A DNA stretch of 64,000 nt from contig WJMA01000062.1 of the NCBI GenBank assembly GCA_014728175.1, forward strand, positions 6,914 to 70,913, given 5' to 3'. The position numbers and the translations under genes are program-made. This DNA is from Candidatus Fermentibacterota bacterium (GTDB lineage: Bacteria; Fermentibacterota; Fermentibacteria; Fermentibacterales; JCC-6). Under the pieces are notes generated by a model. That model was not told where the DNA came from, made no database searches, and was given only the letters and a program-made list of their open reading frames with translations. This document shows positions 35,236 through 60,475 of this stretch, piece by piece; position 1 is the first letter of the stretch, and every line of letters starts with the position of its first letter.

Positions 35236-35409
35236 CTCTTCGCCCGAATTCCTTGTCAGCCATCCAAGCCTGGGTGAGACTCACGATAATCCCGGCAGTA
35301 ATAATGTCAAGAATCCCGTAGAATGGAAATCCCGAGCTTGAGGATTCCTCCCCACCCGTCTAGGTTAGGCCTGTGGAATTCTGTCGCCATTACCTGAGGA
35401 GGAGACCCG

Positions 35410-35943
35410 ATGAAGGTTAGGGAAATCTGGTTCCCGTCGCTGGTGGCGCTGATGCTTCTGCTGGGCGGCTGCGGCGAGGACGACCCGTTCGGCCCGGGCG
35501 ACTGGCACAGCGCCCAAAGTTCCGGAATAGCCCTGGAATGGAAGGTCGACGGCGACGATCTGGCAGTAAGGCTGACCGCCCCGTCCACCGGCTGGATAGC
35601 CGTGGGCTTCGACCCCGAGTCCGGAATGAGAAACGCCAATATCATAATAGGTTACGTCGATGACGATGGTCACCATCTGCGGGATGACTTCGGTACGTCC
35701 CAGAGCTCTCACATGTCCGACCTCAGCCTCGGAGGCTTCGACGATGTAACCCACGAGGATGGCTACGAGGAAGGCGACGAGACCCAGATAGAGTTCGTGA
35801 TTCCCCTGGACTCCGAAGACATCTACGACAAGCCCCTGTCGGAGGGGCTAACCTACACCGTGCTTTTGGCCTACGGAGAGGACGGAGCAGACGACTTCGA
35901 GTCCCAGCACGAGCTATGTACCAGCATGGAGATAGAGATATAG
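35410..35943 (+). CDS. DOMON-like (putative heme/sugar-binding beta-sandwich) lipoprotein, paralog 1 of 4
   Basis: Lipobox LLLGGC. Conserved blocks shared with the three paralogs at 45.3-48.0 kb: TGWIAVGFDP, M..AN(I/L)IIGY, RDDFGT, SH, LGG, YDK, LLAYGEDG.DDF, H. The fold assignment comes from the motif pattern, not a search. Confidence 0.65.
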   Translation: MKVREIWFPSLVALMLLLGGCGEDDPFGPGDWHSAQSSGIALEWKVDGDDLAVRLTAPSTGWIAVGFDPESGMRNANIIIGYVDDDGHHLRDDFGTSQSSHMSDLSLGGFDDVTHEDGYEEGDETQIEFVIPLDSEDIYDKPLSEGLTYTVLLAYGEDGADDFESQHELCTSMEIEI

Positions 35944-35957
35944 GTGAAAGGAGCCCC

Positions 35958-36473
35958 ATGGAAAGAGACTTCCAGGAGATCGATCCCAGAAAGCTTGATG
36001 ACAACGTCTTCGAGCTCATTGCCGACCAGTGGATGCTGGTTACGGCCGGCGAGACGGACGGTTACAACACCATGACCGCCAGTTGGGGCGCCATGGGTGA
36101 GCTCTGGAGCAGGAAGATATGCGTGGCCTTCGTGCGCCCCCAGCGGTACACGTACGGATTCATGAACCGCATGGAACGCTTCACCCTCTCCTTCTTCGAC
36201 GAGGGCCATAGGGACAAGTTGGAATTCTGCGGAACCCATTCGGGAAGAGACGTGGACAAGGCGGCCCGAACCGGACTGATGCCCTTCCCCCCCACCGACG
36301 ACACCGTCGCCTTCCGCCAGGCCAGGCTGATCATGGTCTGCAAGAAGATCTACACCCACGACCTCGATCCGGACAACTTCCTGGAGCCGGACATAGAGGA
36401 CTGCTACCCGGAGAAGGGCTACCACCGCATGTACGTCGGGCGGTTGGAGCGGGCACTACGGGCCATCGACTGA
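35958..36473 (+). CDS. Flavin reductase-like (FMN-binding split-barrel) family protein
   Basis: MERDFQEIDPRKLDDNVFELIADQWMLVTAGE...YNTMTASWGAMGELW...FTLSFF fits the flavin_reduct family. 15 nt downstream of DOMON paralog 1. Confidence 0.78.
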   Translation: MERDFQEIDPRKLDDNVFELIADQWMLVTAGETDGYNTMTASWGAMGELWSRKICVAFVRPQRYTYGFMNRMERFTLSFFDEGHRDKLEFCGTHSGRDVDKAARTGLMPFPPTDDTVAFRQARLIMVCKKIYTHDLDPDNFLEPDIEDCYPEKGYHRMYVGRLERALRAID

Positions 36474-36489
36474 TCTCTGCATAAACGAC

Positions 36490-36517
36490 GAGGGGGAGGG
36501 CGGCCGCCCTCCCCCTC
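36490..36517. terminator. Bidirectional intrinsic-terminator hairpin between convergent genes
   Basis: Perfect 14-bp inverted repeat GAGGGGGAGGGCGG/CCGCCCTCCCCCTC between the flavin reductase (+) and the C25 peptidase (-). Confidence 0.6.
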
Positions 36518-36535: not shown

Positions 36536-38938
36536 TTACCTCAGGACCATCACCGAGCGGGTATCGGTGAAGGCGGGAGCGGACACCCTGACGTGATAAA
36601 CACCTGCGGGCACTCTGGCCCCGCTGGCGTCGGTCAGATCCCATGCCAGGCTGTGGTTTCCGCTCTGCAGCTCGCCCTGGTGGATGGTGGCGACCTTGCG
36701 GCCGGTCAGGTCGAAGACCTCCACCCTGGCATCGCCAGTCGATTCCAGGCCGAACCTGAGCACGGCCGCCTGGTAGGCCGGGTTGGGAGCGATCGAGTAG
36801 ACCGCGCTACGTGGTATCGGTGACTGGAAGTCCTCCGTACCTACGCCGGTAACATCGATCGTCCCCTGGTCGGTGATGAAGTTCCTGGCCCAAACGGCGA
36901 TATCCAAGGTACCGATCGTCTCGGGCTCCACGAAAATATCGATCTCGCCAGACGCATCGGTGTAGTCGATCTCGTAGACCTCTCCGGTCTGCCAGTTACC
37001 CTTTTGCAGGCATACCCTGGCATTCTCCACCGGCGCGCGGCCATCGTCCACCGTCACGTGGACCCAGGTGCTACCGGTTATGGACGCGGGATGGGTTACC
37101 TGGAGATCGCCGGCCTCCTCGGTCCACATGGGCAGCTCGGGATCACCGAACAGGTTGTACTCCTTCATGCACCAGTCCATGTACGTGCTGCAGGGGGGCA
37201 CGAAGAAGTCCATGCTGGTGCCGTGACAGATACCGAGGTTGTAGAGGTCGTTCTCCCAGTGATCCTCGTAGAACCTTATACACAGCCTCTCGCTGGGGCC
37301 CTTGCAGGCTCCGGCGAAGTTGCCGAATCCGTAACGGCTGTTGAAGCAGCCGAAGCCGGCTCCCTCCGGGGAAGCGATCCAGGCGTCGCCGCAGCACTCG
37401 TAGCCGTCCAGCTGCCCGATGTTGCAGGCTATGGACTGCCACAGGGCCGGCAGGTTGCCCGAAGAGATGTTGGTCTGGGCCATTATGTGGTCCACCGTGT
37501 AGTTGCTTCCGTAGGAGGTGTACATGTAGGTCTGGCTGCCGTGGCTGGCATGGAACACGTGGTGGGGCCCGGCATCGATCATCTCTCTGGTGAGGTCGGA
37601 GTTGTTGGTTCCTCCGGACTCGTAGAGCTTTTCCTCTTCCCACTGGGCGTTGGGCACGAACGTGGAGATTGACTCCGCGTCGGCGCTGCCGGGAATGTAT
37701 GGCGAGCTCCACAGGATTCCCGTGGTGTAGCCCATCCGCAGCTCTATGGGCGAGGTCTCGAAGTAATCGTAGGACTGGACCTGCTCGTAGATGAGAACCT
37801 TGTCCACGAACAGCTCGGCCTCGGAGACCGAGTTGACGCTGGCTCTTCCCACCCAGAGATCGGGATGGTAGTCGACCTGGTCCCAGCCGGCCGGCTGGGG
37901 ATACTCGTAGGGATAGGGCACCTCACCGTAGACCTGATCGCAGTTGGCGTCCCACAGGTCCACGCCCGGGGAGGTGTCGTTGATGTCCGCGTAGTAAAGG
38001 TCTCCGGGAGCTTCCTCGGTGTACGATGAGCTTCCCACCAGCATGACGTCCCGACACTCGACCTTGTCGTCGTCGCCGTATATGAGCACGTAGTCGGCAC
38101 CCTCATCACGGCAGTCGGTCAGGAACGCGCGCATGTCCTGCTGGAGGTCGACACAGGAATACTCGCCGTCCACCCAGGTGGTCGTGTACACGTTTGCCGG
38201 TATGCCCTTGGCCGTCTTCCAGTCGGCCAGCTCCTGGGCCTGGGTCTCGTACTCGTCTGCGGTGATTATGACGTACCGGCCGTAGGCCAGCTCGCGCTCC
38301 GACACCAATGTGGCGCCGGAAGGGCTTACGTCCTGCGGGTTGACGACCAGCCTTCTGGCGATTTCCATCGCCTTTTCCTCGCTGGACGCCGCCCTGCGGC
38401 TGACCAGACGCACCGAAGGGTCCTCCTCGTAGGTAACCCTTACGGTCATATCGGAAAGAACCTGCAGGGTCCTGCTGGCCGGGTTCCACCGTACCGGGAA
38501 GACGTTCATGTAGGCCATTGGTATCCCCCAGTAGACGCTGGAGCTGTGCAGAGCCGCCATGGATCTGGGGAAGTAAGTGCTCCGGTCGTAGATCTCCGGA
38601 TTAGGGAGGGCCTGAACGTAATCCATCTCCACCGAGAGAGGGACGGGCTCGTTGGCCGGAAGGATATCGTAGCAACCGTGCATGTCTTCGTAACGGGCCT
38701 CCACCACCTCGACACCGGTAGCCTTGCAACCGGTGGGAAGGGCCACCCTGACCGGCATGACCGGCAGGTAGGGCGAGCCTTCCTTCACGATGTTGGGCAG
38801 ATTGCCGACGGTTACTACGGTGTAGATCCCATCCTCGGTGAGCTCTACATCGGACCGATCGAAGGGTACGGTAACCGTCAGCTCGCCCGCCGCAGCCGCA
38901 ACGACGCAGACCAGCACGAGCATAGCTGTCAAGCGCAT
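36536..38938 (-). CDS. Peptidase C25 (gingipain-like) family cysteine protease with C-terminal T9SS sorting domain
   Basis: Signal peptide MRLTAMLVLVCVVAAAAG. Propeptide-like N-domain. Caspase-like catalytic region (…HASHGSQTY…, …IACNIGQLDGYECCGDAW…). Ig-like domains. ~80-aa C-terminal CTD (…VYSIAPNPAYQAAVLRFGLE…GVYHVRVSAPAFTDTRSVMVLR). Confidence 0.8.
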   Translation of the reverse strand: MRLTAMLVLVCVVAAAAGELTVTVPFDRSDVELTEDGIYTVVTVGNLPNIVKEGSPYLPVMPVRVALPTGCKATGVEVVEARYEDMHGCYDILPANEPVPLSVEMDYVQALPNPEIYDRSTYFPRSMAALHSSSVYWGIPMAYMNVFPVRWNPASRTLQVLSDMTVRVTYEEDPSVRLVSRRAASSEEKAMEIARRLVVNPQDVSPSGATLVSERELAYGRYVIITADEYETQAQELADWKTAKGIPANVYTTTWVDGEYSCVDLQQDMRAFLTDCRDEGADYVLIYGDDDKVECRDVMLVGSSSYTEEAPGDLYYADINDTSPGVDLWDANCDQVYGEVPYPYEYPQPAGWDQVDYHPDLWVGRASVNSVSEAELFVDKVLIYEQVQSYDYFETSPIELRMGYTTGILWSSPYIPGSADAESISTFVPNAQWEEEKLYESGGTNNSDLTREMIDAGPHHVFHASHGSQTYMYTSYGSNYTVDHIMAQTNISSGNLPALWQSIACNIGQLDGYECCGDAWIASPEGAGFGCFNSRYGFGNFAGACKGPSERLCIRFYEDHWENDLYNLGICHGTSMDFFVPPCSTYMDWCMKEYNLFGDPELPMWTEEAGDLQVTHPASITGSTWVHVTVDDGRAPVENARVCLQKGNWQTGEVYEIDYTDASGEIDIFVEPETIGTLDIAVWARNFITDQGTIDVTGVGTEDFQSPIPRSAVYSIAPNPAYQAAVLRFGLESTGDARVEVFDLTGRKVATIHQGELQSGNHSLAWDLTDASGARVPAGVYHVRVSAPAFTDTRSVMVLR

Positions 38939-39068
38939 CTCACACTTCCTCTCATGAGAGTATTTCAGTAAGCGAGGTAAATCAAGTAGACGACTAATAA
39001 GCCATTCATACAAAAACTTACTACAAAATTACATGCACAATCCAACGACCAAAGGCAAGATTCACCCG

Positions 39069-39237: not shown

Positions 39238-39711
39238 ATGGATGCCGAGCTGGAGAAGATAGCCCTTCAGGGAAGCTGGACGGACCGGGACTCCGACACC
39301 TTATCCGACGAGGCCAAGGAAGACACCATCGGCGACAGGCGGAAGTACATATTCTACTGCCCGTACTGCGACCAGGAGTTCGTCACCGATAAGCGTTACC
39401 GGGTCACCGGAAACGTGATCAGCGAATCCGTGAAGACCGGATGCTTCTGGAAGATGCAGGAACTCATCTGGGAGACCTTCTACCGGATTCCTCTCATCGG
39501 CCATTACCTCGGAGAGCGGGCCGAGCGCAAGGTGGACGAGAGGGAGGACCGCATGGAGGACAAGAAAGACCGCAAGACCCTCCTCGAGGCTTTCGAAGAG
39601 GTCAAGGGCAACTTCGTCCAGTGCTCGAAGTGCGGCCGGTACACCTGCGAGTCCTGCATGCAGGAAGCTGTCTGTGGCTTCTGCCGAGACGGCTTCTCCC
39701 CCGAGGAATAG
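39238..39711 (+). CDS. Hypothetical protein with two zinc-ribbon-like Cys clusters
   Basis: CPYC…(N-terminal) and CSKCGRYTCESC…CGFC (C-terminal), a charged central linker and a good RBS (GGGAGGGGG). No recognised family. Confidence 0.55.
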   Translation: MDAELEKIALQGSWTDRDSDTLSDEAKEDTIGDRRKYIFYCPYCDQEFVTDKRYRVTGNVISESVKTGCFWKMQELIWETFYRIPLIGHYLGERAERKVDEREDRMEDKKDRKTLLEAFEEVKGNFVQCSKCGRYTCESCMQEAVCGFCRDGFSPEE

Positions 39712-40711: not shown

Positions 40712-41412
40712 TCAGGAATGCTCTTTCGTAGCGTACGCGGCAATCGCTCTGCAATGGATATCGGTCGTATCCAGAAACGGAACGCCCTTGTACGGCCCCC
40801 GAAGGATCATAGGCAACTCCGTGCATCCCAGAATGAGGCCGTCGATGTCGCTTTTCTCGATCATCCTCGATACGATTTCAAGCAACCCCGTCCGCGTACC
40901 ATCGACTACCTCTCCGTGGCGCAACTCGGTCATCAAGGCGTTGTCTACGTAATCCCGATCTTTCTCGTTCGGCACGATCACGGTGATACCGAGGTCGGAA
41001 GCGGCCTCTTCGTAGAATCCCCCATGGTGAACCTCGTACCCATCAGACCGACCTTCCTTACACCCATCCGGTCCGCTTTCCGCAAGGTTTGCTGCACTAT
41101 GCTGATCATTGGAAGCGGGGATTGCTTTTCGATCTCGACAAAATACACGTGCGGCGTGTTTGCGCTGATGGCGGCGAAGTCGGCACCCGCCCTCTCCAGG
41201 CGACGCACCATGCCCAGGAACCACTCCACCGCCGAGGAAGAGTCGGAATCCCTGAGAAAGTCGAACAAAATGCTTATGTCCGCACTGTATATTACCATCT
41301 CAGGATTAGATAGCTCATCGAAGCAATTAGGCTTGCAGTAGCGGATAATTCTGTCGTAGTACAGCTTAGTGGCCTCGGGGCCCAGTCCACCGATCAGACC
41401 GATCCTTTTCAA
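40712..41412 (-). pseudogene. Aspartate/glutamate racemase family gene interrupted by a -1 frameshift in a C5/G5 homopolymer (41029-41033); authentic pseudogene or sequencing error
   Basis: N-terminal frame MKRIGLIGGLGPEATKLYYDRII...GLMGTRFTM (ends 40978). C-terminal frame GGFYEEAASDLGITVIVPNEKDR...GLILGCTELPMIL... Inserting one G at the G5 run restores a continuous ~235-aa Asp/Glu-racemase-like protein. Confidence 0.75.
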
Positions 41413-45345: not shown

Positions 45346-45906
45346 CTATTCGGCCGACTTAATGCCGGCCCAGGTAAGGCCGTCGAAGGACAACGCCCAT
45401 ATCTCTATTTCCGTGCTGGTTACAAACTCGTGCTTGGTTGTGAAGTTGTCCTCGCCGTCGGCCCCCCGAGCCAGCAGCACCGTGTAGGTGTTTCCCGGGA
45501 CCAGCTGCTTGTCGTACTGGTCTCCAGAATCCAGGGGAATGGTGAAACGAACCTCCGTCTCCCCACCGCTCTCCGAGCCTCCGTCGAGAAGAACATCATG
45601 AGTTCCGCCCAAGGACGTGTCGGCATCGTGCGAGAAAGTCTGATAGCCGTAGTCGTCCCTGATCTCGGTGCTTTCCGTGGTTACGTACCCGATAATCATG
45701 TTTGCACCGAGCATCATGGACTCGGGATCGAAACCAACGGCTACCCAGCCGGTGGTGGGGCCGGTGAGCTCCACGGCAAGCGAGTCCCCGGGTTGAGTGG
45801 TCCATCTAAGCGTAAAACCCTCAATCTCGAGCCCTTGCCATCCTTGGCCTAATGCGCTGCAGGGTAAAAGACAAAACAGAAATATCAACAGGTAGAGCTT
45901 CTTCAT
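45346..45906 (-). CDS. DOMON-like lipoprotein, paralog 2 of 4
   Basis: MKKLYLLIFLFCLLPCSALG lipobox. Conserved blocks TGWVAVGFDPESMMLGANMIIGYV…RDDYGYQTFSH…LGG…YDK…LLARGADGEDNF…H. Confidence 0.65.
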   Translation of the reverse strand: MKKLYLLIFLFCLLPCSALGQGWQGLEIEGFTLRWTTQPGDSLAVELTGPTTGWVAVGFDPESMMLGANMIIGYVTTESTEIRDDYGYQTFSHDADTSLGGTHDVLLDGGSESGGETEVRFTIPLDSGDQYDKQLVPGNTYTVLLARGADGEDNFTTKHEFVTSTEIEIWALSFDGLTWAGIKSAE

Positions 45907-46033: not shown

Positions 46034-46795
46034 TCAGAATGAGAACATCCTGCGAATCGAGAAGCCGAGGAAAAGCCCATCGTGGGCCGTTCCGCTGAGC
46101 TGATCCGCCATTCCGATGCCTTGGCTGTTGCTAAGAGCGACGATGAACTGATGCCCCCACGTAGTCGCTCTTATACCGAACGAGAACGCATCCTCCGCGA
46201 GAATATCACTCGGAGTGCCTTCTTCCTCACGATCCAACACCGGGAAGAACTCCCCCGTCACGCTCAACTTATCCACAAGCTCAACGTCCAGACCGATGCC
46301 GGGGCCGCCCCTGTCGGAGTATCCGTCGTAGCAGTAACCAACAATGGGCACCAGCCTATTCCAGAACGGACCCGAGGTAAGGGTAATCAGGCCCACAAAA
46401 TCACCCTCACGTCCCTTAACCGGGTCGATTTCCAACGACTTGAATCCCAGATATGCGTAGGTCTCCATCCCCCGGAACGGAAGGGTCTGAGACCAACCGA
46501 TCCCTCCCAAGTAACGGCTTCCGGACCTTACGTGGCCCAACCTAACGTCCAACCGGCGCCAGGGAAATAAACGTAGATCAACTCCCACGTTCGCACCAAC
46601 ATCCATGCCGAAGAAATCTTCGAAAGGATCCTCACCGAAGGCCTCCCCGTAGAACCTGTGGTCAACCCGCAGCTCCAGGCTCCCCGTCTCCACCTCCGTG
46701 TAGGGCACTCTCAGGTTAAGCATCCCCCTCTCGAAGCACGTAGCTACGGCCGGAAAGACCAAAAGAATCAGCATTATTCGCATTACGTTGCCCAT
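46034..46795 (-). CDS. Outer-membrane beta-barrel protein (C-terminal Phe; DUF5777-like) embedded in the DOMON-like lipoprotein cluster
   Basis: Signal peptide, 250 aa of alternating strands, C-terminal …FLGFSIRRMFSF OMP-type terminus. 5-8 nt from the upstream paralog stop, so co-transcription is likely. Confidence 0.55.
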   Translation of the reverse strand: MGNVMRIMLILLVFPAVATCFERGMLNLRVPYTEVETGSLELRVDHRFYGEAFGEDPFEDFFGMDVGANVGVDLRLFPWRRLDVRLGHVRSGSRYLGGIGWSQTLPFRGMETYAYLGFKSLEIDPVKGREGDFVGLITLTSGPFWNRLVPIVGYCYDGYSDRGGPGIGLDVELVDKLSVTGEFFPVLDREEEGTPSDILAEDAFSFGIRATTWGHQFIVALSNSQGIGMADQLSGTAHDGLFLGFSIRRMFSF

Positions 46796-46802
46796 GGCCG
46801 AG

Positions 46803-47369
46803 TCAAATTTCCAGGGAGACGGATTCTGCGTAGACATGCCCGGAGCTGAAGTCGTCTGCACCGTTAGACCCGTAGGCGAATATCACCGCGTAGGTCGTTC
46901 CCTCGACCAGGGCTTTATCGTAATCGTCGCCCGAATCCATCGGTATGCGAAACTCTATCTGCGTCTGGATTGGATCGCTGCCTTCCGAACCCTTCACCAA
47001 CACGATATCATGGGTGCCGCCCAGGGTGGTGTCCGCGTCGTGTGAGGTCTGCCCGGTTCCGAAATCATCCCTGATCGATGTGGAGCCAGCAGAGACGTAG
47101 CCGATTATCAGGTTGGCTTCGCTCATGAAGGATGTGGGATCGAAGCCCACCGCGACCCAGCCCGAGGTCGGAGCGGTTATCCTTGAGTTCAATTCGGCCA
47201 GGGAATCATCGACCATCCACTCGAAGGTGACGTCGTCTACGGAATACTGATTCCAGCCCTCCTCGTTCTCGGAGGGCCCAGTCGAATCGCCACAGCCGGC
47301 TAGCACAATACCAGCCGCTGCGATAAGGACCGTCACTCTCGAAACCAATAGCCTGCTCATGATATCCAT
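46803..47369 (-). CDS. DOMON-like lipoprotein, paralog 3 of 4
   Basis: MDIMSRLLVSRVTVLIAAAGIVLAGCGD lipobox. Conserved blocks SGWVAVGFDPTSFMSEANLIIGYV…RDDFGTGQTSH…LGG…YDK…IFAYGSNGADDF…H. Confidence 0.65.
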   Translation of the reverse strand: MDIMSRLLVSRVTVLIAAAGIVLAGCGDSTGPSENEEGWNQYSVDDVTFEWMVDDSLAELNSRITAPTSGWVAVGFDPTSFMSEANLIIGYVSAGSTSIRDDFGTGQTSHDADTTLGGTHDIVLVKGSEGSDPIQTQIEFRIPMDSGDDYDKALVEGTTYAVIFAYGSNGADDFSSGHVYAESVSLEI

Positions 47370-47394: not shown

Positions 47395-47961
47395 CTAAAG
47401 CTCGATCTCGACCTTGACCACCCAAACGTGGTACTCGTCGAAATCGTCCGAACCGTCCTCCCCGTACGCCAAAAGCACCTCGTGGAGGCTCCCGGGTACC
47501 AGTTCGGTATCGTATTCGTCCCCCGATGACAGCAGCTTGGTGAAGGAGATGGTGGTTCTGCCATCCTCTTCAGATCCGGTAACGTCGATCAAATCACTGG
47601 TTCCACCCAGCTCGGTATCGGCCCGGTGAGACGTGTGGCCGGTTCCATAATCGTCCCTCAGGAATACCTCCCCGCCAGAAAAGTAGCCTATCATAAGGTC
47701 CGCATCCTTCATGGCTGCCGTTGGGTCGAATCCGATAGCCACCCATCCAGTGGTAGGAGCGGCCATGGTGACCCTGAGACTGTCACCCCTTGGATAAAGT
47801 GATAGCTCGAAACCATCCATGGTAATATCATGGTTTTCAACTACTTCCGGCTCGCTTTCCGGCTCCGATCCCTCTGCGGGGCGTCCCGAAGCCGCTCCTC
47901 CGCAACTCCCAAATGCCGCCATTAGACCCAGCAGTAGCAGGATCAACGAAATTCTTGCCAT
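47395..47961 (-). CDS. DOMON-like lipoprotein, paralog 4 of 4
   Basis: MARISLILLLLGLMAAFGSCGG lipobox. Conserved blocks TGWVAIGFDPTAAMKDADLMIGYF…RDDYGTGHTSH…LGG…YDT…LLAYGEDGSDDF…H. Confidence 0.65.
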   Translation of the reverse strand: MARISLILLLLGLMAAFGSCGGAASGRPAEGSEPESEPEVVENHDITMDGFELSLYPRGDSLRVTMAAPTTGWVAIGFDPTAAMKDADLMIGYFSGGEVFLRDDYGTGHTSHRADTELGGTSDLIDVTGSEEDGRTTISFTKLLSSGDEYDTELVPGSLHEVLLAYGEDGSDDFDEYHVWVVKVEIEL

Positions 47962-52171: not shown

Positions 52172-53299
52172 GAAGTAGTACGATGTGGTGACGTAGTAGA
52201 CGTCCGCGTATGAGCCCAGGTCTTCGCTATCGGAGCCGAAGCTGAGCTGTGAGCCCACCCCCAGGAAGACGTTCTGGGCAATGCTGTAGTCGACGGAGAG
52301 CATACCGTAGGCGGACGGTTCCTCCAGATTGACGAACCCGCTGGGAGTTACGGTCAGCAGAGGGGAAGCCTGCCAGCTCAGACCGTGGATCAAGTATTGG
52401 CTTCCGTTCAGGTAGACGTTCGGCCCCTGCCCTAGCTCGCGTGCTCTGTGAGACGAGTAGTGGTACTCGATCTGGCCGTAGAGGTCTGCAGCCAGCCTGT
52501 AGTCGGCTCCCAGGCTTGCCCTTAGCATGGTCTCCCCCGCCCGTCGTGACATCCCCCCGAGGAAGGTGCACGTTCCGTCGAACCAGACGCTGGCTCCTCC
52601 CGCCGCCCTCGACGCGTTGCAGCCCAATACGATGTCCCGCCTGTGGACGCCCACTATCAGGTCGATGTCCGATCGGGCTACGTAGTTGTGCAGTCGGGCG
52701 TAGATCGCGCTGCTGTCGGGAGCTGCGTGGTACCCCGAGACTACTCCCAAATCCAGTTCCGAGAAGAGCCCGAGCGGTACCCTTGCTCTCAGCGCATCGA
52801 CTCCCTGTCTGTTCTCGCTCTCCAGCTGGTTGAACGGGTAGGGTGCAAGGAAATCGCTCGGAGACACGAAGTGGGCGGTACCCCATGAGACGGCCTGTCT
52901 ACCTGCGATGACATCGGCAAACGAGAGCCTCAGTGTGGCGTTGAGTCTGTCGATGTTGGACAGAACGGCGAAACTCGTGGCGCTGTCGACATGCTCCGGG
53001 TGAAGGTAGAGGTCTGGGTCGGAGACCCGCAGCCCAGTTCTCCCCGAGTCACCCCAGAGTCTTCCGTCGCGAACGGTAGGCAAGAGGACGTACGCCCCCT
53101 CCAGCCGCAGGGTTCTCGAAATCCTGATACCGGATTCAAGGCGCAGAATACCTTGCCACGAGCCCGCCTCGCACAGGCTATCGTTTGGAAGGAGAGTATA
53201 TAGGGCGTAGCTCTTCCAGTGTCCGGCCAACCCTACCGGCGCGGCAAGGGCCGGAGCGAAGCAGAGCAGAAGAGCTAGTGCGCTAAGCCTTCCTCTCAT
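52169..53299 (-). CDS. Hypothetical outer-membrane beta-barrel protein (C-terminal …TTSYYF)
   Basis: Signal peptide MRGRLSALALLLCFAPALAAP. 376 aa with strand-like periodicity and a C-terminal Phe. Last gene of the TetR/LolA-like/ABC operon. Confidence 0.5.
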   Translation of the reverse strand: MRGRLSALALLLCFAPALAAPVGLAGHWKSYALYTLLPNDSLCEAGSWQGILRLESGIRISRTLRLEGAYVLLPTVRDGRLWGDSGRTGLRVSDPDLYLHPEHVDSATSFAVLSNIDRLNATLRLSFADVIAGRQAVSWGTAHFVSPSDFLAPYPFNQLESENRQGVDALRARVPLGLFSELDLGVVSGYHAAPDSSAIYARLHNYVARSDIDLIVGVHRRDIVLGCNASRAAGGASVWFDGTCTFLGGMSRRAGETMLRASLGADYRLAADLYGQIEYHYSSHRARELGQGPNVYLNGSQYLIHGLSWQASPLLTVTPSGFVNLEEPSAYGMLSVDYSIAQNVFLGVGSQLSFGSDSEDLGSYADVYYVTTSYYF

Positions 53300-53978
53300 C
53301 CTCCGCTATCCTGCCATCCCTGAGGATCACCACTCTGGTCGCACGCTCCATCACTATCTCGTCGTGGGTGGAGAAGAGGAACGTCATTCCAGTGCTGCGG
53401 TTCAGCTCGCGCATCATATCCAGCAGCTCCCCGGACGTCTCGGAGTCCAGATTGGCGGTGGGCTCGTCGGCCATAACCAACGATGGTTTCGCGGCCATGG
53501 CCCTGGCGATGGCCACTCGCTGCTGTTGGCCTCCGGAAAGCTTTGAGGGAAGGGTATCGATGTAGTCTTCCAGGCCAACATCCTCCAACATTTCCTCCAC
53601 CCTTTTCCGACGCTCCTCCGCGGACACCCCCTGAAGGAGCATCACGTACTCAACGTTCTCCGCAGTGGTTAGTACAGGAATCAGGTTGTAGGCCTGAAAT
53701 ATGAACCCGATCTTATCCCGCCTGAAATCGGAGAGCTCCCTTCCGGACATCCTGCCGATGGATTTGTCCTCCAGAAAAGCCTGGCCCTTTGAAGGAGTAT
53801 CCAGGCCCGCCATCATGTTAAGGAGCGTGGTCTTGCCGGAACCCGAAGGTCCCACCAGAGCGGTGAACTCCCCCCCGTGTATCTCCAGGTCCACTCCCCT
53901 GACCGCATGGACCGGGACGCCGTCGTCATCGTAAGTCTTGTGCAGGTTCTCGGTCTTGATTACAGCTTGCATTCCCAT
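53283..53978 (-). CDS. ABC transporter ATP-binding protein (MacB/LolD-type)
   Basis: Walker A GPSGSGKTT, Q-loop, signature LSGGQQQRVAIARAM, Walker B LVMADEPTANLD. Confidence 0.9.
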   Translation of the reverse strand: MGMQAVIKTENLHKTYDDDGVPVHAVRGVDLEIHGGEFTALVGPSGSGKTTLLNMMAGLDTPSKGQAFLEDKSIGRMSGRELSDFRRDKIGFIFQAYNLIPVLTTAENVEYVMLLQGVSAEERRKRVEEMLEDVGLEDYIDTLPSKLSGGQQQRVAIARAMAAKPSLVMADEPTANLDSETSGELLDMMRELNRSTGMTFLFSTHDEIVMERATRVVILRDGRIAEDERKA

Positions 53979-53985
53979 CCGCCTC

Positions 53986-55206
53986 TCAGAGGCTCTTGCG
54001 CATCGCATCCGCCGGTTTCAGCCTGGCGGCATGAACCGCAGGATATACGCCGACTATCAAGGTCACGAAGAACACGATTATGGGGTACTTGATGAACTGG
54101 TTCGCGGTACTGATCGTGTAGATGGGTTCGCGGAAGGTCACTCCCGCCGTTTCGATGCCCGTGTAATCGATGCCGATCTCGGCGAACAGAAGGTTCAGAC
54201 CCAGGCCCAGAACGGAGCCCAGCACGATGCTCAGCAATCCCAACCAGGCAGCCTCCATCAGCATCAGCTTGGCGACGTCCGTCGCTCTGGTCCCTATCGC
54301 CTTGAGTACCCCGAACTCGAACATCCGCTCGTATATGGACATGAACAGGGTGTTGATTATGCCGAAGATCACGATACCGAATAGAACAACCCCCACGATC
54401 AGGGTGGACAAATCGCTCATCTCGAACATCACCTGCAGCTGAGGCAGCAGCTCCACCCACGATTCCACGACGTTGCCCGATTCCGCCAGATGGGCTATTT
54501 CTTCCTCCGGCGCGCTTCTCCAATGCTCGGCACCCCGGTAGTCGACCGCTATCTCGTGCACCCCCGACAGGCCCAGCATGGACTGGGCCTTTTCCAAAGA
54601 GACGAACGCCGTGGTCTTGTCGAACTCGGCCGAGCCGAATCTGTAAAGCCCCCCTACCCTGAGCATTTCCTGGTAGAGGTCGCCGGTACCGGCCATCGAG
54701 ATGGTCACCACCACCCGGTCTCCCAGCTCTACGTCCAGCTGATCGGCAAGATCGACGCCTATTACCAGATGAGACTCCCCACCCACGTAAGAGCCTTCGA
54801 CCATCGCTTCGTCCAGCATGGAAACCGAGCGCTCCCTGGATGGATCTATGCCGTACAGAGCAACCATCGACATGTCGGCCGCCGAGCTCAGCATCCCTTG
54901 GGCTACTACCCTTCTGGTGTAGTTCTTCACCCTCGGGTCTGAGGCCAGCGAGGAAAGAACCGAATCCGGCCGCTCGATGGTAAGCTCTGCCGACATGCTC
55001 CTGGAGAAATTCTGGTTATGTATCTGCAGGTCTCCCATCCAGGATGAGGTGGCGGACCTGACCAGCCCGTCGCTCATGCCGATGATCACCGCGTCGGTGA
55101 AAATCAGCGAGGCCAGGCCTATGCCTATGGCGATACCCGCTATAAGCGTACGTCTCTTGTTCCTAAGCAGGTTCCGCCAGGCCACCTTGAGGAACCTCAG
55201 ATACAT
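53986..55206 (-). CDS. ABC transporter permease, FtsX-like (MacB/LolC/E family)
   Basis: N-terminal TM, large periplasmic MacB_PCD-like domain, and a C-terminal 3-TM FtsX domain. Confidence 0.85.
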   Translation of the reverse strand: MYLRFLKVAWRNLLRNKRRTLIAGIAIGIGLASLIFTDAVIIGMSDGLVRSATSSWMGDLQIHNQNFSRSMSAELTIERPDSVLSSLASDPRVKNYTRRVVAQGMLSSAADMSMVALYGIDPSRERSVSMLDEAMVEGSYVGGESHLVIGVDLADQLDVELGDRVVVTISMAGTGDLYQEMLRVGGLYRFGSAEFDKTTAFVSLEKAQSMLGLSGVHEIAVDYRGAEHWRSAPEEEIAHLAESGNVVESWVELLPQLQVMFEMSDLSTLIVGVVLFGIVIFGIINTLFMSIYERMFEFGVLKAIGTRATDVAKLMLMEAAWLGLLSIVLGSVLGLGLNLLFAEIGIDYTGIETAGVTFREPIYTISTANQFIKYPIIVFFVTLIVGVYPAVHAARLKPADAMRKSL

Positions 55207-55218
55207 CCCGTCCCTCCT

Positions 55219-56433
55219 CTAGTAGGTGCGCATCGCTTCTGCGGGTCTGGTCCGGGCCGCCTTAAGTGCGGGTACCAGGCAGACCAGCATGGCGGTGAGC
55301 AAGACGGTCAGGGTGGGCAGGTACAGGCTACGGGGGGTAAAGGCAGCACGCATCTCCTGAAAGGACATGCCTCCGTAAGTAACCTCTTGAGATAGGCTTA
55401 TGCCAGTTTCCGAAAGGATGTGTATGCCCAGCAGACCCAAGGGTACACCTACCGCTACGGCGACTACGGAAAGTATGAGGGTCTCGATGACCACCATGGA
55501 GACTATCCCGGAGGGACGGGTACCCAGGGCCCTGAGGACACCGTACTCCCTGCGCCTCTCCAGAACGGACATTAGAACGGTATTAAGTACGCCCACCGCT
55601 ACCACGATCATTATTACCAGAAGCATAACCCACATGCCGGCCATGTCTGCCTTCATCGCCCTGTAGAAGTCCTGTGCGAACACTTTCCAGGTTACCACCT
55701 CTACATCTCCTCGTTCCACGGCCTCTGCTATCCCGGCCGCGATACCGTCCAGTCCCTGCATGGTCTCCGTCATGACGGCTATCTCGTGCGCGCTTCCCTG
55801 TAATACCAGTAACTCCTGTGCATCGCTTATGTGCAGGTACATGTTTGCCCGGTCCGACATCATGTCACCGGTCTCTATCAGGCCTACTACCACGTACCCT
55901 TCGTTGGCTATGGAGCCGTCCGCCCCTTGCGATAGAACCGCTACGGTATCTCCGATGCCTGCCTGCAGTCTCTCGGCCAGGCCCTCTCCCAAGACAGCTT
56001 CCCGTCTCGGTACGCCGCTCAGTGTCTCTCCTTCCACCAGCTGCTTGGATAGGGCGGTGGCCTCTTCCTCCAGAGCAGGATCGATACCCACCAGTTTTCC
56101 GGCTGCACTCTGGTCCCGTACCGATAGAAGACCTCCGGAGTAGATTCTGGGAGCCCAGGCTCTTACCCGGTCCAGGTCATCGATAGTACTCCCGAGTTGT
56201 TCGTAGTTAGAGATTTTGTCGTACAGTGAGGGGTCTTCCCTGTAGCCTTTGTGGTGCAGCTGGATCTGTCCGGTTCTGGTGTCGGTAAAGAGCCTTATGA
56301 TGTCATTGTAGGTTCCGTCCGCCCATCCGATGGAAAGCGCGCAAAGAAAGAAGCCGCCGGTCATGGTGAGAATCGTAAGCAGGGACCGTCTTCTCTGACG
56401 AAGCACGTTCCTAAAGGACAGCTTGAGCAGCAT
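55219..56433 (-). CDS. ABC transporter permease, FtsX-like (second paralog)
   Basis: Same architecture as the preceding gene. Tandem FtsX-type permeases, as in LolC/LolE. Confidence 0.85.
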   Translation of the reverse strand: MLLKLSFRNVLRQRRRSLLTILTMTGGFFLCALSIGWADGTYNDIIRLFTDTRTGQIQLHHKGYREDPSLYDKISNYEQLGSTIDDLDRVRAWAPRIYSGGLLSVRDQSAAGKLVGIDPALEEEATALSKQLVEGETLSGVPRREAVLGEGLAERLQAGIGDTVAVLSQGADGSIANEGYVVVGLIETGDMMSDRANMYLHISDAQELLVLQGSAHEIAVMTETMQGLDGIAAGIAEAVERGDVEVVTWKVFAQDFYRAMKADMAGMWVMLLVIMIVVAVGVLNTVLMSVLERRREYGVLRALGTRPSGIVSMVVIETLILSVVAVAVGVPLGLLGIHILSETGISLSQEVTYGGMSFQEMRAAFTPRSLYLPTLTVLLTAMLVCLVPALKAARTRPAEAMRTY

Positions 56434-56441
56434 GTCCTACC

Positions 56442-57179
56442 CTAGTTCTGGGATCTCAGATTGCGCATGCTGAAGATGTTCGGATCAACGCCTATGTCGA
56501 AATCCGCTTCCAGAAACGTCAAGGTGGTCGAGCCCTCCTCGTCCTGCGGAACCAGCTCCATAACGGTGGGGATGGTCCTACCCCCCATCTCGGCGTACTC
56601 CCCGTAGTTCATTACCCGCATCAGATCTCCGTCCTCGTCGTAGTACCTCATCCAGACCGGAAGGAGGTCCTTCTCGCGGACGCAACAGATCACCTTGCCC
56701 CAGACCACGGGAGCATCGGAATGCGGGGTGAGCTCTATGTAGAGCATTCCCTCCCTGGAGTCCCCTATCCGGGTCCAGGCGTAATCGTAATCATCGAAGA
56801 AGGTGGTCTCGCGAACCAGATCGTCGTTAGTGAAGTCCGACCCCATCCAGGAGCCCATCATCATTGACGGAGGTATCCTCATGATACTGTTGGTGTTGGG
56901 GAGATAGTTCCACATCTCGTTACCTATCCTGAGGGTGGCCATTCCGGCCTCTCTGGGCGGCGAAACTATGCGGATGAAAGTCTTGTCCATGCCCTCGGTC
57001 CAGACCTTCATCTCCAGGGTTCGTTCCCAGTTGGGGGTGGTTATGTGCATCTTCATCTCGGAGTAGCTGCTCTCACTACGGTAAAGGCTGTCCAGGAAAC
57101 TGATCGTTTGCTCCAGCGATGGGCCGGAGGCTAGAGCGAGACCAACCGAAACCAGGATAGGAGACAAAAGCCATCGCAT
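56442..57179 (-). CDS. Outer-membrane lipoprotein-sorting (LolA-like fold) protein
   Basis: Signal peptide. ~230 aa resembling the 'outer membrane lipoprotein-sorting protein' family that co-occurs with FtsX-type ABC systems. Confidence 0.6.
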   Translation of the reverse strand: MRWLLSPILVSVGLALASGPSLEQTISFLDSLYRSESSYSEMKMHITTPNWERTLEMKVWTEGMDKTFIRIVSPPREAGMATLRIGNEMWNYLPNTNSIMRIPPSMMMGSWMGSDFTNDDLVRETTFFDDYDYAWTRIGDSREGMLYIELTPHSDAPVVWGKVICCVREKDLLPVWMRYYDEDGDLMRVMNYGEYAEMGGRTIPTVMELVPQDEEGSTTLTFLEADFDIGVDPNIFSMRNLRSQN

Positions 57180-57885: not shown

Positions 57886-60126
57886 CTATCTACCGATCAG
57901 CACCAGCTTCCTGGCGTCGCTCCTCTGACCCGAACGGGCGACGAGAACGTAGACGCCCATTGGTACGGACTCGGAGAGCATAAGATCGGTATCCATGCGG
58001 GTTGCGGAGCCACCAGGAACGAAGGACGAGGTCACCTTTCTTCCGGCCATATCGTACAGGAATATCTCACAGGGCTCGTTTCCACCCAATCCGGTTACGG
58101 ATACCGGTATCGAGCGGTCTGTCGGATTGGGCGCAGATATCACAATCCTCTCTGCCGCCTCGCTGTTGCTCTCTTCTTCAATCCCCACGGGTTCCCATTG
58201 GATGGTCACCTGGTGGCTTCCCCCGGAAAGACCGTCTGCATCCACAAAGACCCTGTTGCCGTCGTGAACCTCCCAAGTGGCCGGCTGCCCATCCACCATA
58301 GCGGATATGTCTGTGACCGATTCGGGGAGCTTAGCCACCACCGTCTGGCCGTAACTGGTCGAACCTGTGAAGTACAGGCTGGCCGACGTCCAGGTGGAGC
58401 GGACGCTGTCTACGGTCGAGACGTAGAGCTCGTCCATGAGCTCCGCGTAATCCACAGGGAGCAGCCACCCGAAATGTGGGTAGTCCTGCTCCAGGGACGT
58501 GCACAGACTGTCTATTCTGTCGTATGCGGGTTGTCCTCCGAAGATCGCTATTGGGTGGCCTCCCAGCAGACCGTGCTTTCCGCGCTCCATGACCCTGCTC
58601 AGGTAGTCGTAGTTCATCATCTGATTGTAGTCGGCCCACCATACGGTGTTCGCTCCCCACATCCGCCCGTAGGGTGTCTCGTACTTGGATAGATAGAGGT
58701 CCCAGAACCACTCCCCCGCCATCCATTCGTTCCATCGGGCACCGTTGCTGTAATAACGGAAGCCGTGGTCGACCAAGGCCCAGAGAGCGCTGAGACTCAC
58801 CCTGTTGCCGGGAGGCCTGAGGGTTCTCATAGCTTCCTGCGCATCCAGTCCAATATCGGTGTAATCACTCCGTATCATGTCGAAGCGCTCCTGGTGCTCC
58901 TCCAGTTCGTAGGTGATGAATTCGTGGTATGGATCCCAGGCCGAATCCGGGCACGGGGTGTGATGGTAGCCGTGACACCCGAGGTTAACCCTTTCGGACC
59001 ATGGGTAAACGTCGTTCTGGATGTTGATCAGCCACTGCTTGTAGTCCGCCGGAGCCTCGGTAGAGATTCTCCACGTGCAGTGCCAGTGCGACCAGCTGTC
59101 CTGGTGTCCCGGTTCGTACCACATGGAATCGCAGTTGCCTTGCAGAATACCATCTCCGAGAATCAGTATGTTCATATTCATTTGTGGATGATCCTCGAGA
59201 ATTCTTATCAATGTGGCACTTACCCACTCGTCACCGGATGAGGTCTCGGAAAAGCCCCACATGTAGCCCTGAGCGGGATGAAGAAGAGGAATCTCGTCCA
59301 TTATCCAGCTGGCAGTTCTCTCGTACATATCGGGATGGTACGAGAAGTAGATCGGTGTATGATCGTCCTCGACGAACATCCGTACGTAGTAGCTGCTGCT
59401 GCTTCCAGGGCCCAACCGGGAGTGAAGATCGGGGCCTGCGCAGTTGTCCCGAGGCGGCTCGACGTCAAAAAATCTTATGCTAAGGTACTCGTTGTCCGGA
59501 TACTCCTCGCCCGAGACGGTCAGCATTGCTTTCGACGGATTGGGGAAGTTGAACCAGGTGTCGATCTCGCATCCCGGGCCGTAAAGCTCCACCTCCTGAT
59601 CACCGGATACACGGAAGGTCTCGTGTGTCCCGTTAAGGGCGTTGCGTCTGTCCACTTCTATCGTTTGGTTATGGAACTTGACAAAACCACCCACGTAGGG
59701 CTTGAGCCCGAAGTCCGCTTCCAGAGGTAAGGATATCTCGGCCGTATCGGTTGCCGACACCTGGTAGGTTACCTCCAATCCCCTTCCGACCAGCCTGTAG
59801 GTAACGGAGAGGCTTATGGGGAGCTCCTCCATCGTGGAGTGATCGATCATCCCCGAGGAAGAGAAAGTGGCGGAGGCAGTACCATGCATTGCCACCGTTC
59901 CGTCCATTGGAACGAAGTCACCGGAATGAACGCTTCCGTAATCTCCACCTTCGGCGAGATCTACGCCGGTTTGGAGATCCAAGAGCTCCAGTAAGGAACC
60001 AGCACGGGAATCGGTTGTCTGAACCGGCGAGACAACCGCCCTCATGTAACCGTTCCATAGAGTATCACTCTGGTCAGGGCTGCCTGCGACCAAACACAAA
60101 GTGAGAAGAAAAGGCGACAACACGGC
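57886..60126 (-). CDS. Large secreted hypothetical protein with C-terminal T9SS sorting domain
   Basis: Start reassigned to GTG at 60126 (RBS GAGGAAGGAG; signal peptide VLSPFLLTLCLVAGS). His/Cys/Trp-rich central region (…WSHWHCTWRI…GCHGYHHTPCPD…). C-terminal ~80-aa CTD (…IVISAPNPTDRSIPVSVTG…YVLVARSGQRSDARKLVLIGR). Confidence 0.6.
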   Translation of the reverse strand, partial: AVLSPFLLTLCLVAGSPDQSDTLWNGYMRAVVSPVQTTDSRAGSLLELLDLQTGVDLAEGGDYGSVHSGDFVPMDGTVAMHGTASATFSSSGMIDHSTMEELPISLSVTYRLVGRGLEVTYQVSATDTAEISLPLEADFGLKPYVGGFVKFHNQTIEVDRRNALNGTHETFRVSGDQEVELYGPGCEIDTWFNFPNPSKAMLTVSGEEYPDNEYLSIRFFDVEPPRDNCAGPDLHSRLGPGSSSSYYVRMFVEDDHTPIYFSYHPDMYERTASWIMDEIPLLHPAQGYMWGFSETSSGDEWVSATLIRILEDHPQMNMNILILGDGILQGNCDSMWYEPGHQDSWSHWHCTWRISTEAPADYKQWLINIQNDVYPWSERVNLGCHGYHHTPCPDSAWDPYHEFITYELEEHQERFDMIRSDYTDIGLDAQEAMRTLRPPGNRVSLSALWALVDHGFRYYSNGARWNEWMAGEWFWDLYLSKYETPYGRMWGANTVWWADYNQMMNYDYLSRVMERGKHGLLGGHPIAIFGGQPAYDRIDSLCTSLEQDYPHFGWLLPVDYAELMDELYVSTVDSVRSTWTSASLYFTGSTSYGQTVVAKLPESVTDISAMVDGQPATWEVHDGNRVFVDADGLSGGSHQVTIQWEPVGIEEESNSEAAERIVISAPNPTDRSIPVSVTGLGGNEPCEIFLYDMAGRKVTSSFVPGGSATRMDTDLMLSESVPMGVYVLVARSGQRSDARKLVLIGR

Positions 60127-60475
60127 GACTCCTTCCTCTATCAATACGAAAAGGGTGTGGATTTTCGAAGACAATAACTCATTTCAATTATAATTCTCGA
60201 TCTTCCAACCGCAAGGCTACAAACTAGTAAGTTCACTCGTATTCCCCGCCCTCGATGGAACGCATTTCCTGACGGCTAGGGCCTTCCGCCACCCGTCGCC
60301 GCGATGCGCATCCCAGGATCTCCCGGAGATACGTAGAAGGAACGCGGGAGGGTTTTCGCAGAAAATGCTGATTCTCGCATACGTTTAACTATCTTTAAGT
60401 TACAAACATTTGTTTGCCGTTGACTCCACAATTGCCTATTCTATGAGAAAAAGATAATGCTGGTAGGGAGATATC

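Follow-up and report, generated by a model that had tools for sequence, protein, structure and literature searches.

A DOMON lipoprotein and a flavoredoxin-like flavin reductase encoded as a conserved gene pair in Candidatus Fermentibacterota

Described systems compared with the Fermentibacterota locus

The routes by which bacteria are known to move electrons beyond the cytoplasm mainly involve multihaem c-type cytochromes, flavinylated lipoproteins, and MsrQ-type systems. The locus described here is part of a 64,000-nucleotide stretch of contig WJMA01000062.1 from Candidatus Fermentibacterota (the whole stretch that was analysed, hereafter the window), and consists of a gene for a predicted DOMON-domain lipoprotein (gene 1) that is followed on the same strand by a gene for a flavin reductase-like protein (gene 2). 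The closest described arrangement is that of Escherichia coli, where electrons from cytosolic Fre go to the FMN and haem of MsrQ in the membrane, and then to periplasmic MsrP (PMC12525009). As for the window pair, the cytoplasmic flavin reductase and the extracytoplasmic acceptor are separate polypeptides in the Fre-MsrQ-MsrP system, but Fre is a member of the FNR-like family rather than Flavin_Reduct or FMN_red, and the periplasmic acceptor is a molybdoenzyme rather than a DOMON protein. Furthermore, the membrane component MsrQ is known in that system, whereas none was found in the window. The gene linkage is also different: E. coli fre lies outside the msrPQ operon, while in the window the reductase and the presumed acceptor are the linked genes.

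Eukaryotic b561-DOMON and ferric-reductase-DOMON proteins feature an extracytoplasmic DOMON domain beside a di-haem transmembrane cytochrome, and are regarded as electron-transfer modules (PMC3591440). The likeness to CYBDOM/AIR12 is that proteins of the window DOMON family occur as fusions to Cytochrom_B561 (see below), and the difference is that the window protein is a stand-alone lipoprotein without a transmembrane cytochrome domain. In the eukaryotic proteins, the cytoplasmic electron donor is ascorbate or same-chain NADPH, and not a separate flavin reductase. To our knowledge, cellobiose/pyranose dehydrogenase is the only characterised flavoenzyme that reduces a Met/His-coordinated haem b in a DOMON-type β-sandwich, and its cytochrome domains are among the best fold matches of the gene 1 protein. 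However, the two domains of that enzyme share one secreted chain and are in contact, whereas the window proteins are separate and predicted to be on opposite sides of the inner membrane; the flavoprotein is of GMC type, unlike the split barrel of gene 2. The closest solved relatives of gene 2 are the flavoredoxins (Desulfovibrio, Methanosarcina, Thermus), which are likewise small FMN split-barrel proteins of anaerobes. A bacterial DOMON protein in a trans-envelope electron conduit with an outer-membrane barrel is represented by MtrA-DOMON (PMC8805035), but these are multihaem c-type cytochrome fusions of Proteobacteria with MtrB as the barrel; in the window system there is no c-type cytochrome, and the barrel would be DUF5777 or DUF5916. 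Literature searches returned no link between flavoredoxins and DOMON proteins, and no description of a DOMON-flavin reductase operon, of DUF5777, or of DOMON proteins in Fermentibacteria. The pair is outside any described system, and would resemble Fre-MsrQ-MsrP or CYBDOM only with a membrane cytochrome provided in trans. Its conservation hints at a route, not described before, by which electrons could reach the cell envelope, but the two proteins cannot meet and the link across the membrane is missing.

An earlier reading of the DNA (the sequence-only reading) had placed the two open reading frames (ORFs) at 35410–36473 on the plus strand, and both are located exactly there (Table 1). The gene 1 protein matches the Pfam DOMON profile (PF03351) over positions 4–124 of 124 (E=1.3e-18, 67.9 bits; cut-off 32.7), and its AlphaFold (AF2) model (pLDDT 91.6) is a β-sandwich of 11 strands. 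Among its top Foldseek matches in the PDB are the DOMON domain of dopamine β-hydroxylase (4zel, 2.6e-5) and the cytochrome-b domains of pyranose/cellobiose dehydrogenase (6jt6, 1pl3, 1d7b), and ethylbenzene dehydrogenase γ (2ivf_C) also belongs to the best matches. At the level of profile and fold, gene 1 is a bona fide DOMON protein. Its N-terminus, MKVREIWFPSLVALMLLLGG↓C21 (…LLLGG↓C21GEDDPF…), reads as a signal peptide with a lipobox, and both the lipobox Cys21 and the acidic linker after it are kept in gene 1 orthologues. The product is predicted to be extracytoplasmic and lipid-anchored.

As for gene 2, the previous assignment to the FMN-binding split-barrel flavin reductase family is confirmed by Pfam (Flavin_Reduct, PF01613; E=4.4e-10, 40.3 bits; cut-off 27), by the AF2 model, which is a split barrel (pLDDT 83.9), and by Foldseek, where the model matches 3e4v (8e-9), 3hmz, 3bnk, 2d5m, and 1usf. 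The closest folds are FMN-bound NADH:FMN oxidoreductase-like proteins and flavoredoxins, and the sequence profile matches flavoredoxin structures only (2D5M, 1USC, 3BNK), although these matches are weak and partial in alignment (E 2e-7 to 3e-4). By profile and by fold, gene 2 encodes a genuine Flavin_Reduct/flavoredoxin-like protein, and would be expected to have NAD(P)H/flavin activity. No NCBIfam model matches either the gene 1 or the gene 2 protein. The gene 2 product is 100% identical to a 171-residue NCBI entry, [quoted passage not shown] (P0001), and because of this identity the start is placed at 35958 rather than at the upstream ATG at 35916. The protein has no export signal and is predicted to be cytoplasmic.

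The stop codon of gene 1 and the ATG of gene 2 are separated by 14 nt; the adjacency noted earlier is correct, while the gap had been given as 15 nt. A putative Shine-Dalgarno sequence precedes each gene, the second of them inside the gap, and no terminator was found between the two genes. A GC-rich hairpin 3′ of gene 2 would be the likely end of the operon. Upstream of gene 1, a candidate σ70-like promoter can be recognised by pattern, and the arrangement TTGAG-18-TAGTTT/TAGGTT is kept 5′ of orthologous DOMON genes in five related loci (L001, L002, L003, L008, and L010). Inspection by eye of the upstream regions of the orthologues revealed no Fur, PerR or Rex-type operator. Read in this way, 35410–36473 looks like a co-transcribed, bicistronic operon.

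Conservation of the pair and the links of the DOMON family

Co-occurrence across relatives, by which the sequence-only reading suggested that the pairing be judged, is borne out. The comparison covers 80 genome DOMON loci, obtained from closest-homologue look-ups and a scan of one genome per species, in Fermentibacterota (as Fermentibacteria, Aegiribacteria, and Sabulitectum), Cloacimonadota, Spirochaetota, WOR-3, Coatesbacteria, and Zixibacteria. Because a greedy ORF caller gave antisense artefacts in GC-rich loci (clusters c6, c14, and c71), the positions of reductase and DOMON genes were taken from direct hidden Markov model (HMM) searches of all ORFs. A Flavin_Reduct gene is present in 15 of the 80 loci, in every case 3′ of the DOMON gene and in the same orientation. 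When 143 DOMON domains are placed in a neighbour-joining tree, the Flavin_Reduct-linked genes all group together in a single clade, which includes gene 1 (paralog 1 of the window). Seventeen genome loci belong to this clade. The reductase is located 3–75 nt 3′ of the DOMON stop codon in 13 of them, and after an inserted cassette in two; in one, the contig stops short of this position, and the remaining locus is treated further below. With its recurrence in these 13 of 17 loci and in further metagenome contigs, the adjacency exceeds what is expected by chance. A Flavin_Reduct neighbour was seen in none of the approximately 110 DOMON domains outside the clade, and in none outside Fermentibacterota.

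The arrangement is old, because HisRS is only 55–60% identical between the window and the Aegiribacteria-type loci that have the pair. However, the upstream block to which HisRS belongs (rotamase, acetate kinase, Wzy-like, GAF, SpoIIE phosphatase, and HisRS genes, divergent from the DOMON gene) is equally widely conserved. The two genes might then simply have been neighbours since the ancestor of the phylum, with no functional meaning, an explanation that also fits the insertion of cassettes between them without apparent harm, and the fact that either gene can be lost alone. It fits less well that the genes are always co-directional, with the same short gaps at this degree of HisRS divergence, and that the downstream flank is variable (C25 peptidase, PDZ-esterase, Cu/Zn efflux with ArsR, or rubrerythrin). 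Nor does inherited synteny account for the independent arrival of an FMN_red gene beside another DOMON orthogroup, described below, and we consider this explanation very unlikely. In seven loci (L006, L061, L068, L078, L084, L088, and L089), genes for an SO_0444-like Cu/Zn efflux permease with a CopZ-like HMA domain and for an ArsR/SmtB regulator are present 0.2–3 kb 3′ of the pair, and in L006 the order is DOMON, reductase, permease, and ArsR, all co-directional. As part of the variable flank, the efflux and ArsR genes were rejected as members of the pair.

The inserted cassettes differ in content between lineages. L092 has a YbgA-like DUF523/DUF1722 gene alone, and L002 a small unannotated ORF followed by YbgA-like and photolyase genes. 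In L003 and L008–L010, the insert consists of Eis-like acetyltransferase, YbgA-like, and photolyase genes, and L011 ends within an incomplete photolyase gene. Throughout the cassette loci (L002, L003, L008–L013, and L092–L093), the inserts are co-directional with the pair and separated by tiny gaps; the junction in the window is 35944–35957. The window and L001 have no cassette between DOMON and reductase. In the cassette lineages, the genes after the reductase encode rubrerythrin, nitroreductase, and an ECF sigma factor with its anti-sigma factor. In L092–L095, the reductase gene is directly followed by a gene for a 720–730-residue protein with an N-terminal CBM9-like domain and DUF5916, even where the DOMON lipoprotein is absent. 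The CBM9-like domain, of the DOMON superfamily, is a borderline match (E=7e-5).

These inserts and flanks bear on an alternative in which the pair belongs to a stress island and is transcribed from one promoter, with no electrons passing between the products. The reductase would then serve partners in the cytoplasm, for example photolyase/flavin cofactors, rubrerythrin, and nitroreductase-type systems, and the DOMON protein would have a separate task in the envelope. The operon of the sister lineage (DOMON, in some cases acetyltransferase, YbgA-like, photolyase, and reductase) agrees with such a role, as do flanking genes for rubrerythrin, nitroreductase, an ECF sigma factor with its zf-HC2 anti-sigma factor, desulfoferrodoxin, and ferritin. 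In L003, the reductase start overlaps the photolyase stop codon by 4 nt, indicative of translational coupling. Moreover, the gene 2 family is large (4,492 matches in many phyla, all single-domain), with homologues in Clostridia, Kiritimatiellota, Zixibacteria, and WOR-3 that are more than 54% identical, and on contigs from Zixibacteria and Kiritimatiellales the reductase gene adjoins LexA or UvrC(-HTH), a DNA-damage context, without a DOMON gene; the family is mostly DOMON-independent. A stress island nevertheless leaves unexplained both the non-homologous flavin reductase of a second DOMON orthogroup and the CBM9/DUF5916 envelope protein 3′ of the reductase, and the window and the Aegiribacteria-type lineages have the pair without photolyase, rubrerythrin or ECF genes nearby. 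We regard it as rather unlikely.

The second orthogroup forms a DOMON clade of its own, adjacent to paralog 2 of the window in the tree. In seven Fermentibacterota loci of this clade, an FMN_red gene (PF03358, E=1e-39) is located immediately 3′ of the DOMON gene, and in two more loci the FMN_red gene and a DOMON gene from a neighbouring clade are placed tail-to-tail. As in L036, FMN_red in L047 faces a third DOMON gene in convergent orientation, with a masked stretch between them. The FMN_red family has a flavodoxin-like fold and is unrelated to Flavin_Reduct, and the presence of two non-homologous flavin reductase families beside two DOMON orthogroups is hard to put down to chance. The sequence-only reading had suggested separate redox partners for the paralogs; this finds support in the relatives, where the orthogroup of paralog 2 has FMN_red, but not in the window, where paralog 1 alone among the DOMON paralogs has a reductase neighbour. 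An identification of the FMN_red neighbour as ArsH, which would imply metalloid resistance together with the efflux and ArsR genes, was rejected since the NCBIfam equivalog score is 60.8 bits against a cut-off of 292. By sequence, the protein is a generic member of the FMN_red family. In L016, L020, L024, L030, and L031, the DOMON and FMN_red genes are followed by genes for a 231-residue protein (c27), a radical SAM/SPASM protein, an AIG2-like γ-glutamyl cyclotransferase, and an EF-G-like GTPase, and the divergent side encodes DOMON, DUF5777, a small protein, an HI0933-like flavoprotein, and an MFS transporter.

In an exhaustive search with the DOMON profile, 423 cluster representatives were obtained at a threshold of E<=1e-30, and 1,675 when it was relaxed to E<=1e-10. 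Ten multi-domain members of the family were scanned for fused domains, and three of them (P0277, P0271, and P0318; DOMON profile E<=1e-53) are fused to transmembrane Cytochrom_B561 and retain the conserved Met and His positions discussed below. In P0277, the DOMON signature GW[VI]AVGFDP…M…ANLIIGY…RDDFG…H..D…PLDSGD..D…H is that of the window proteins. Type IX secretion sorting tails, found in five of the ten (P0289, P0317, and P0349 are among the family members with such tails), imply display on the cell surface. In L036, L047, and L099, a DOMON-DOMON-DUF5777 operon ends with a gene that combines Ferric_reduct, FAD_binding_8, and NAD_binding_1, i.e., a transmembrane reductase of NOX/FRE type, and in L101 (79% identity) such a gene is directly 3′ of DOMON. 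The electron-transfer role previously suggested for this lipoprotein family is thereby strengthened: b561 fusions, the NOX/FRE-type neighbour, and published architectures in which DOMON is fused to ferric-reductase domains (PMC3591440) or to MtrA (PMC8805035) make such a role, at the outer face of the cytoplasmic membrane, well supported. FRD-type and Flavin_Reduct genes within 2 kb of each other in L113/L114 were disregarded, since RNase H, a GNAT acetyltransferase, and a small ORF intervene.

The commonest neighbour of the DOMON family is DUF5777, present in 35 of the 80 genome loci. In L054, L079, L086, and L091 (WOR-3 and Cloacimonadota), a 120-residue secreted protein with a weak match to desulfoferrodoxin, a superoxide reductase-like domain (E=4.5e-4), is encoded 5′ of DUF5777 and DOMON, and WOR-3 loci have a small protein with a type IX tail 3′ of these genes. 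The family also includes metagenome proteins of up to 2,975 residues with up to 12 tandem DOMON domains (P0244–P0259), which, if haem-binding, would amount to “wires” of b-type cytochrome domains.

Candidate haem ligands and the proposed electron path

In the gene 1 protein, Met73 is part of the loop that connects strands 4 and 5, and His167 lies where the last strand begins. In placement and spacing, the two residues resemble M65 and H163 of cellobiose dehydrogenase and the Met/His pair of AIR12. The first position is Met in 135 of the 143 aligned DOMON domains. The second is His in 105 of 111 domains outside both reductase-linked clades and in all seven FMN_red-linked domains (112 of 118 together), and the window protein retains the pair. 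Based on this conservation, the gene 1 DOMON domain probably binds one b-type haem, with Met73 and His167 as candidate ligands. The Flavin_Reduct-linked clade itself is less uniform, with Tyr in place of His167 in 16 of its 25 members, and the Tyr-type members also gain a His beside the conserved Met (“YMMHD”). This combination suggests that the ligand set has changed specifically in the orthogroup linked to the reductase.

The sequence-only reading envisaged NAD(P)H-dependent reduction of the DOMON protein directly by the reductase. This is unsupported, because the proteins are placed in different compartments: the reductase lacks a signal for export, the lipobox of the DOMON protein is conserved, and no membrane redox protein was found in the 64-kb window by HMM search, hydrophobicity scan, and Pfam analysis of multi-pass-membrane and other selected ORFs. 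As the arrangement that agrees with most of the observations, we tentatively propose that the gene 2 reductase could be the cytoplasmic input of a split pathway, similar to Fre-MsrQ, that ends on the DOMON protein. In such a pathway, the reductase would oxidise NAD(P)H in the cytoplasm, as would FMN_red for the sister orthogroup, and the reduced flavin would pass electrons to a b-type cytochrome in the membrane (b561- or FRD/NOX-type), whose gene would be at another place in the genome. This cytochrome would in turn reduce the DOMON lipoprotein at the outer face of the inner membrane, from where the DOMON paralogs and the DUF5777/DUF5916 barrels may take the electrons further out. The scheme follows Fre-MsrQ-MsrP and also the cytochrome b561-DOMON proteins, where the DOMON haem receives its electrons from the membrane cytochrome. 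By location and fold, the DOMON lipoprotein is a plausible periplasmic electron acceptor; how electrons would cross the membrane, in which direction they would flow, and where they would end up is our inference.

Several observations weigh against a split pathway. Besides the missing membrane component, the equally conserved flanking block, the coupling of reductase to photolyase in L003, and the size and DOMON-independence of the reductase family, the relatives closest to the window, with the exception of L001, have unrelated genes between DOMON and reductase. In L084, the last of the 17 loci of the clade, a 59-residue N-terminal remnant is all that is left of the reductase while the DOMON gene is kept, and L094 has the reductase in a region without a DOMON gene. 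The NOX-like neighbour is limited to one narrow lineage (at least 79% identity). Tyr at position 167 is a poor match for a simple Met/His electron carrier, and searches of PDB sequences with the gene 1 protein and with the family profile gave nothing meaningful, so that no sequence relative with a solved structure came up.

In a further alternative, the DOMON proteins and the DUF5777/DUF5916 barrels would capture haem or ferric iron on the surface of the cell, and the cytoplasmic reductases would free the iron after uptake. Tyr ligation is typical of haem-transport proteins, and most of the reductase-linked clade has Tyr in place of His167. Assimilatory ferric reductases occur in both reductase folds: the fold matches of gene 2 include 1I0R, the ferric reductase of Archaeoglobus, and Paracoccus FerA and FerB belong to the two reductase families. 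That outer-membrane barrels are the commonest neighbours, and that type IX tails put some family members on the cell surface, would also suit an uptake system. However, a TonB-dependent receptor, an ABC importer or a haem-degrading enzyme does not occur among the recurrent neighbours in the 80 genome loci and the metagenome loci, and no Fur-box-like operator was recognised by eye in the upstream regions. The b561 fusions and the NOX-like neighbour indicate electron transfer rather than transport, and haem or iron acquisition seems quite unlikely as the function of the pair.

Other genes in the window and implications

The three other DOMON paralogs in the window, found by phmmer with the gene 1 protein (identity 41–51%, E 1e-48 to 1e-34), are all on the minus strand, which agrees with the earlier count of gene 1 as one of four. 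The DUF5777 protein among them (locus tag GF402_11120) gave three matches in a homology search, with no informative architectures. The DUF5916 protein of the window may be a further, unlinked member of the module, because a CBM9-like/DUF5916 gene is directly 3′ of the reductase in L092–L095.

Table 1. Features of the gene pair and related genes in the window
Feature	Position	Strand	Evidence
Candidate σ70-like promoter CTTGAG-N18-TAGGTT for the two-gene operon	35337..35369	+	pattern only
Putative Shine-Dalgarno GAGGAGGAG for the DOMON gene	35396..35404	+	read from sequence
DOMON-domain lipoprotein (gene 1), paralog 1, 177 aa	35410..35943	+	Pfam, AlphaFold model, fold matches, residue conservation
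Predicted signal peptide and lipobox LLGG↓C21	35410..35472	+	read from sequence
Candidate haem ligand Met73	35626-35628	+	residue conservation
His101, near-invariant in the DOMON family	35710-35712	+	residue conservation
Candidate haem ligand His167	35908-35910	+	residue conservation
Putative Shine-Dalgarno AAAGGAG for the reductase gene, inside the 14-nt gap	35947..35953	+	read from sequence
Flavoredoxin-like flavin reductase (gene 2; Flavin_Reduct, split barrel), 171 aa, no signal peptide	35958..36473	+	Pfam, NCBI identity, profile, fold
GC-rich hairpin, 12-bp stem, between convergent reductase and C25 peptidase genes; likely operon end	36490..36517	.	sequence
DOMON paralog 2	45346..45906	-	phmmer 1e-48; Pfam DOMON 1.5e-18
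DUF5777 predicted outer-membrane β-barrel	46034..46861	-	Pfam PF19089 3.8e-13
DOMON paralog 3, lipobox LAGC	46803..47366	-	phmmer 6e-45; Pfam DOMON 6.3e-17
DOMON paralog 4 (lipoprotein), which opens the paralog cluster	47395..47961	-	phmmer 1e-34; Pfam DOMON 4.5e-18
DUF5916 protein, 725 aa	60476..62653	+	Pfam PF19313 2.1e-38

Convergent with the reductase gene is a gene (36536–39013, minus strand) for a C25 (gingipain-type) peptidase with a propeptide, a FlgD-Ig domain, and a weak type IX tail. Since a second large protein (57886–60174, minus strand) also has a weak type IX tail, the organism seems to use type IX secretion. Further along, at 39238–39711 on the plus strand, a 157-residue protein is encoded whose two CxxC pairs resemble a zinc ribbon; Pfam gave no significant match for it, and an unannotated ORF of 159 residues is found in the equivalent place in L001. 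An Asp/Glu racemase (40712–41412, minus strand) is divided over two overlapping ORFs, of which 40978–41412 covers profile positions 1–125 of 211, and 40712–41224 is in another frame; a frameshift, a pseudogene or an assembly error is likely. A LolA-like protein (56442–57179) is encoded beside two permease-like ORFs with four transmembrane segments each and a possible ATPase ORF (53283–57179, minus strand). This cluster possibly represents Lol-type lipoprotein sorting, and would then bear on where the DOMON lipoproteins end up.

A more far-reaching version of the split pathway is an envelope conduit that operates without multihaem c-type cytochromes and is built from b-haem DOMON proteins, in Fermentibacterota and neighbouring candidate phyla of the FCB group. 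Electrons would pass from a cytoplasmic Flavin_Reduct or FMN_red protein via a transmembrane cytochrome b (b561/NOX-type) to one or several DOMON lipoproteins, and from there through a DUF5777/DUF5916 barrel, or a type IX-displayed DOMON protein, to an external acceptor. We consider such a conduit improbable in this complete form. If it exists, obligate fermenters would gain an extracellular electron sink or a periplasmic route for oxidant scavenging.

The window pair offers a compact entry point to these questions, as it consists of two small soluble proteins. If true, a DOMON b-haem route that receives its electrons from small cytoplasmic flavin reductases would provide functions for several large unknown families, with the DUF5777 and DUF5916 barrels associated, and would extend the principle of the eukaryotic cytochrome b561-DOMON proteins to bacteria, as a split, multi-gene system. 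It would also suggest how uncultured fermenters of digesters and sulfidic mats shed electrons or guard their envelope.

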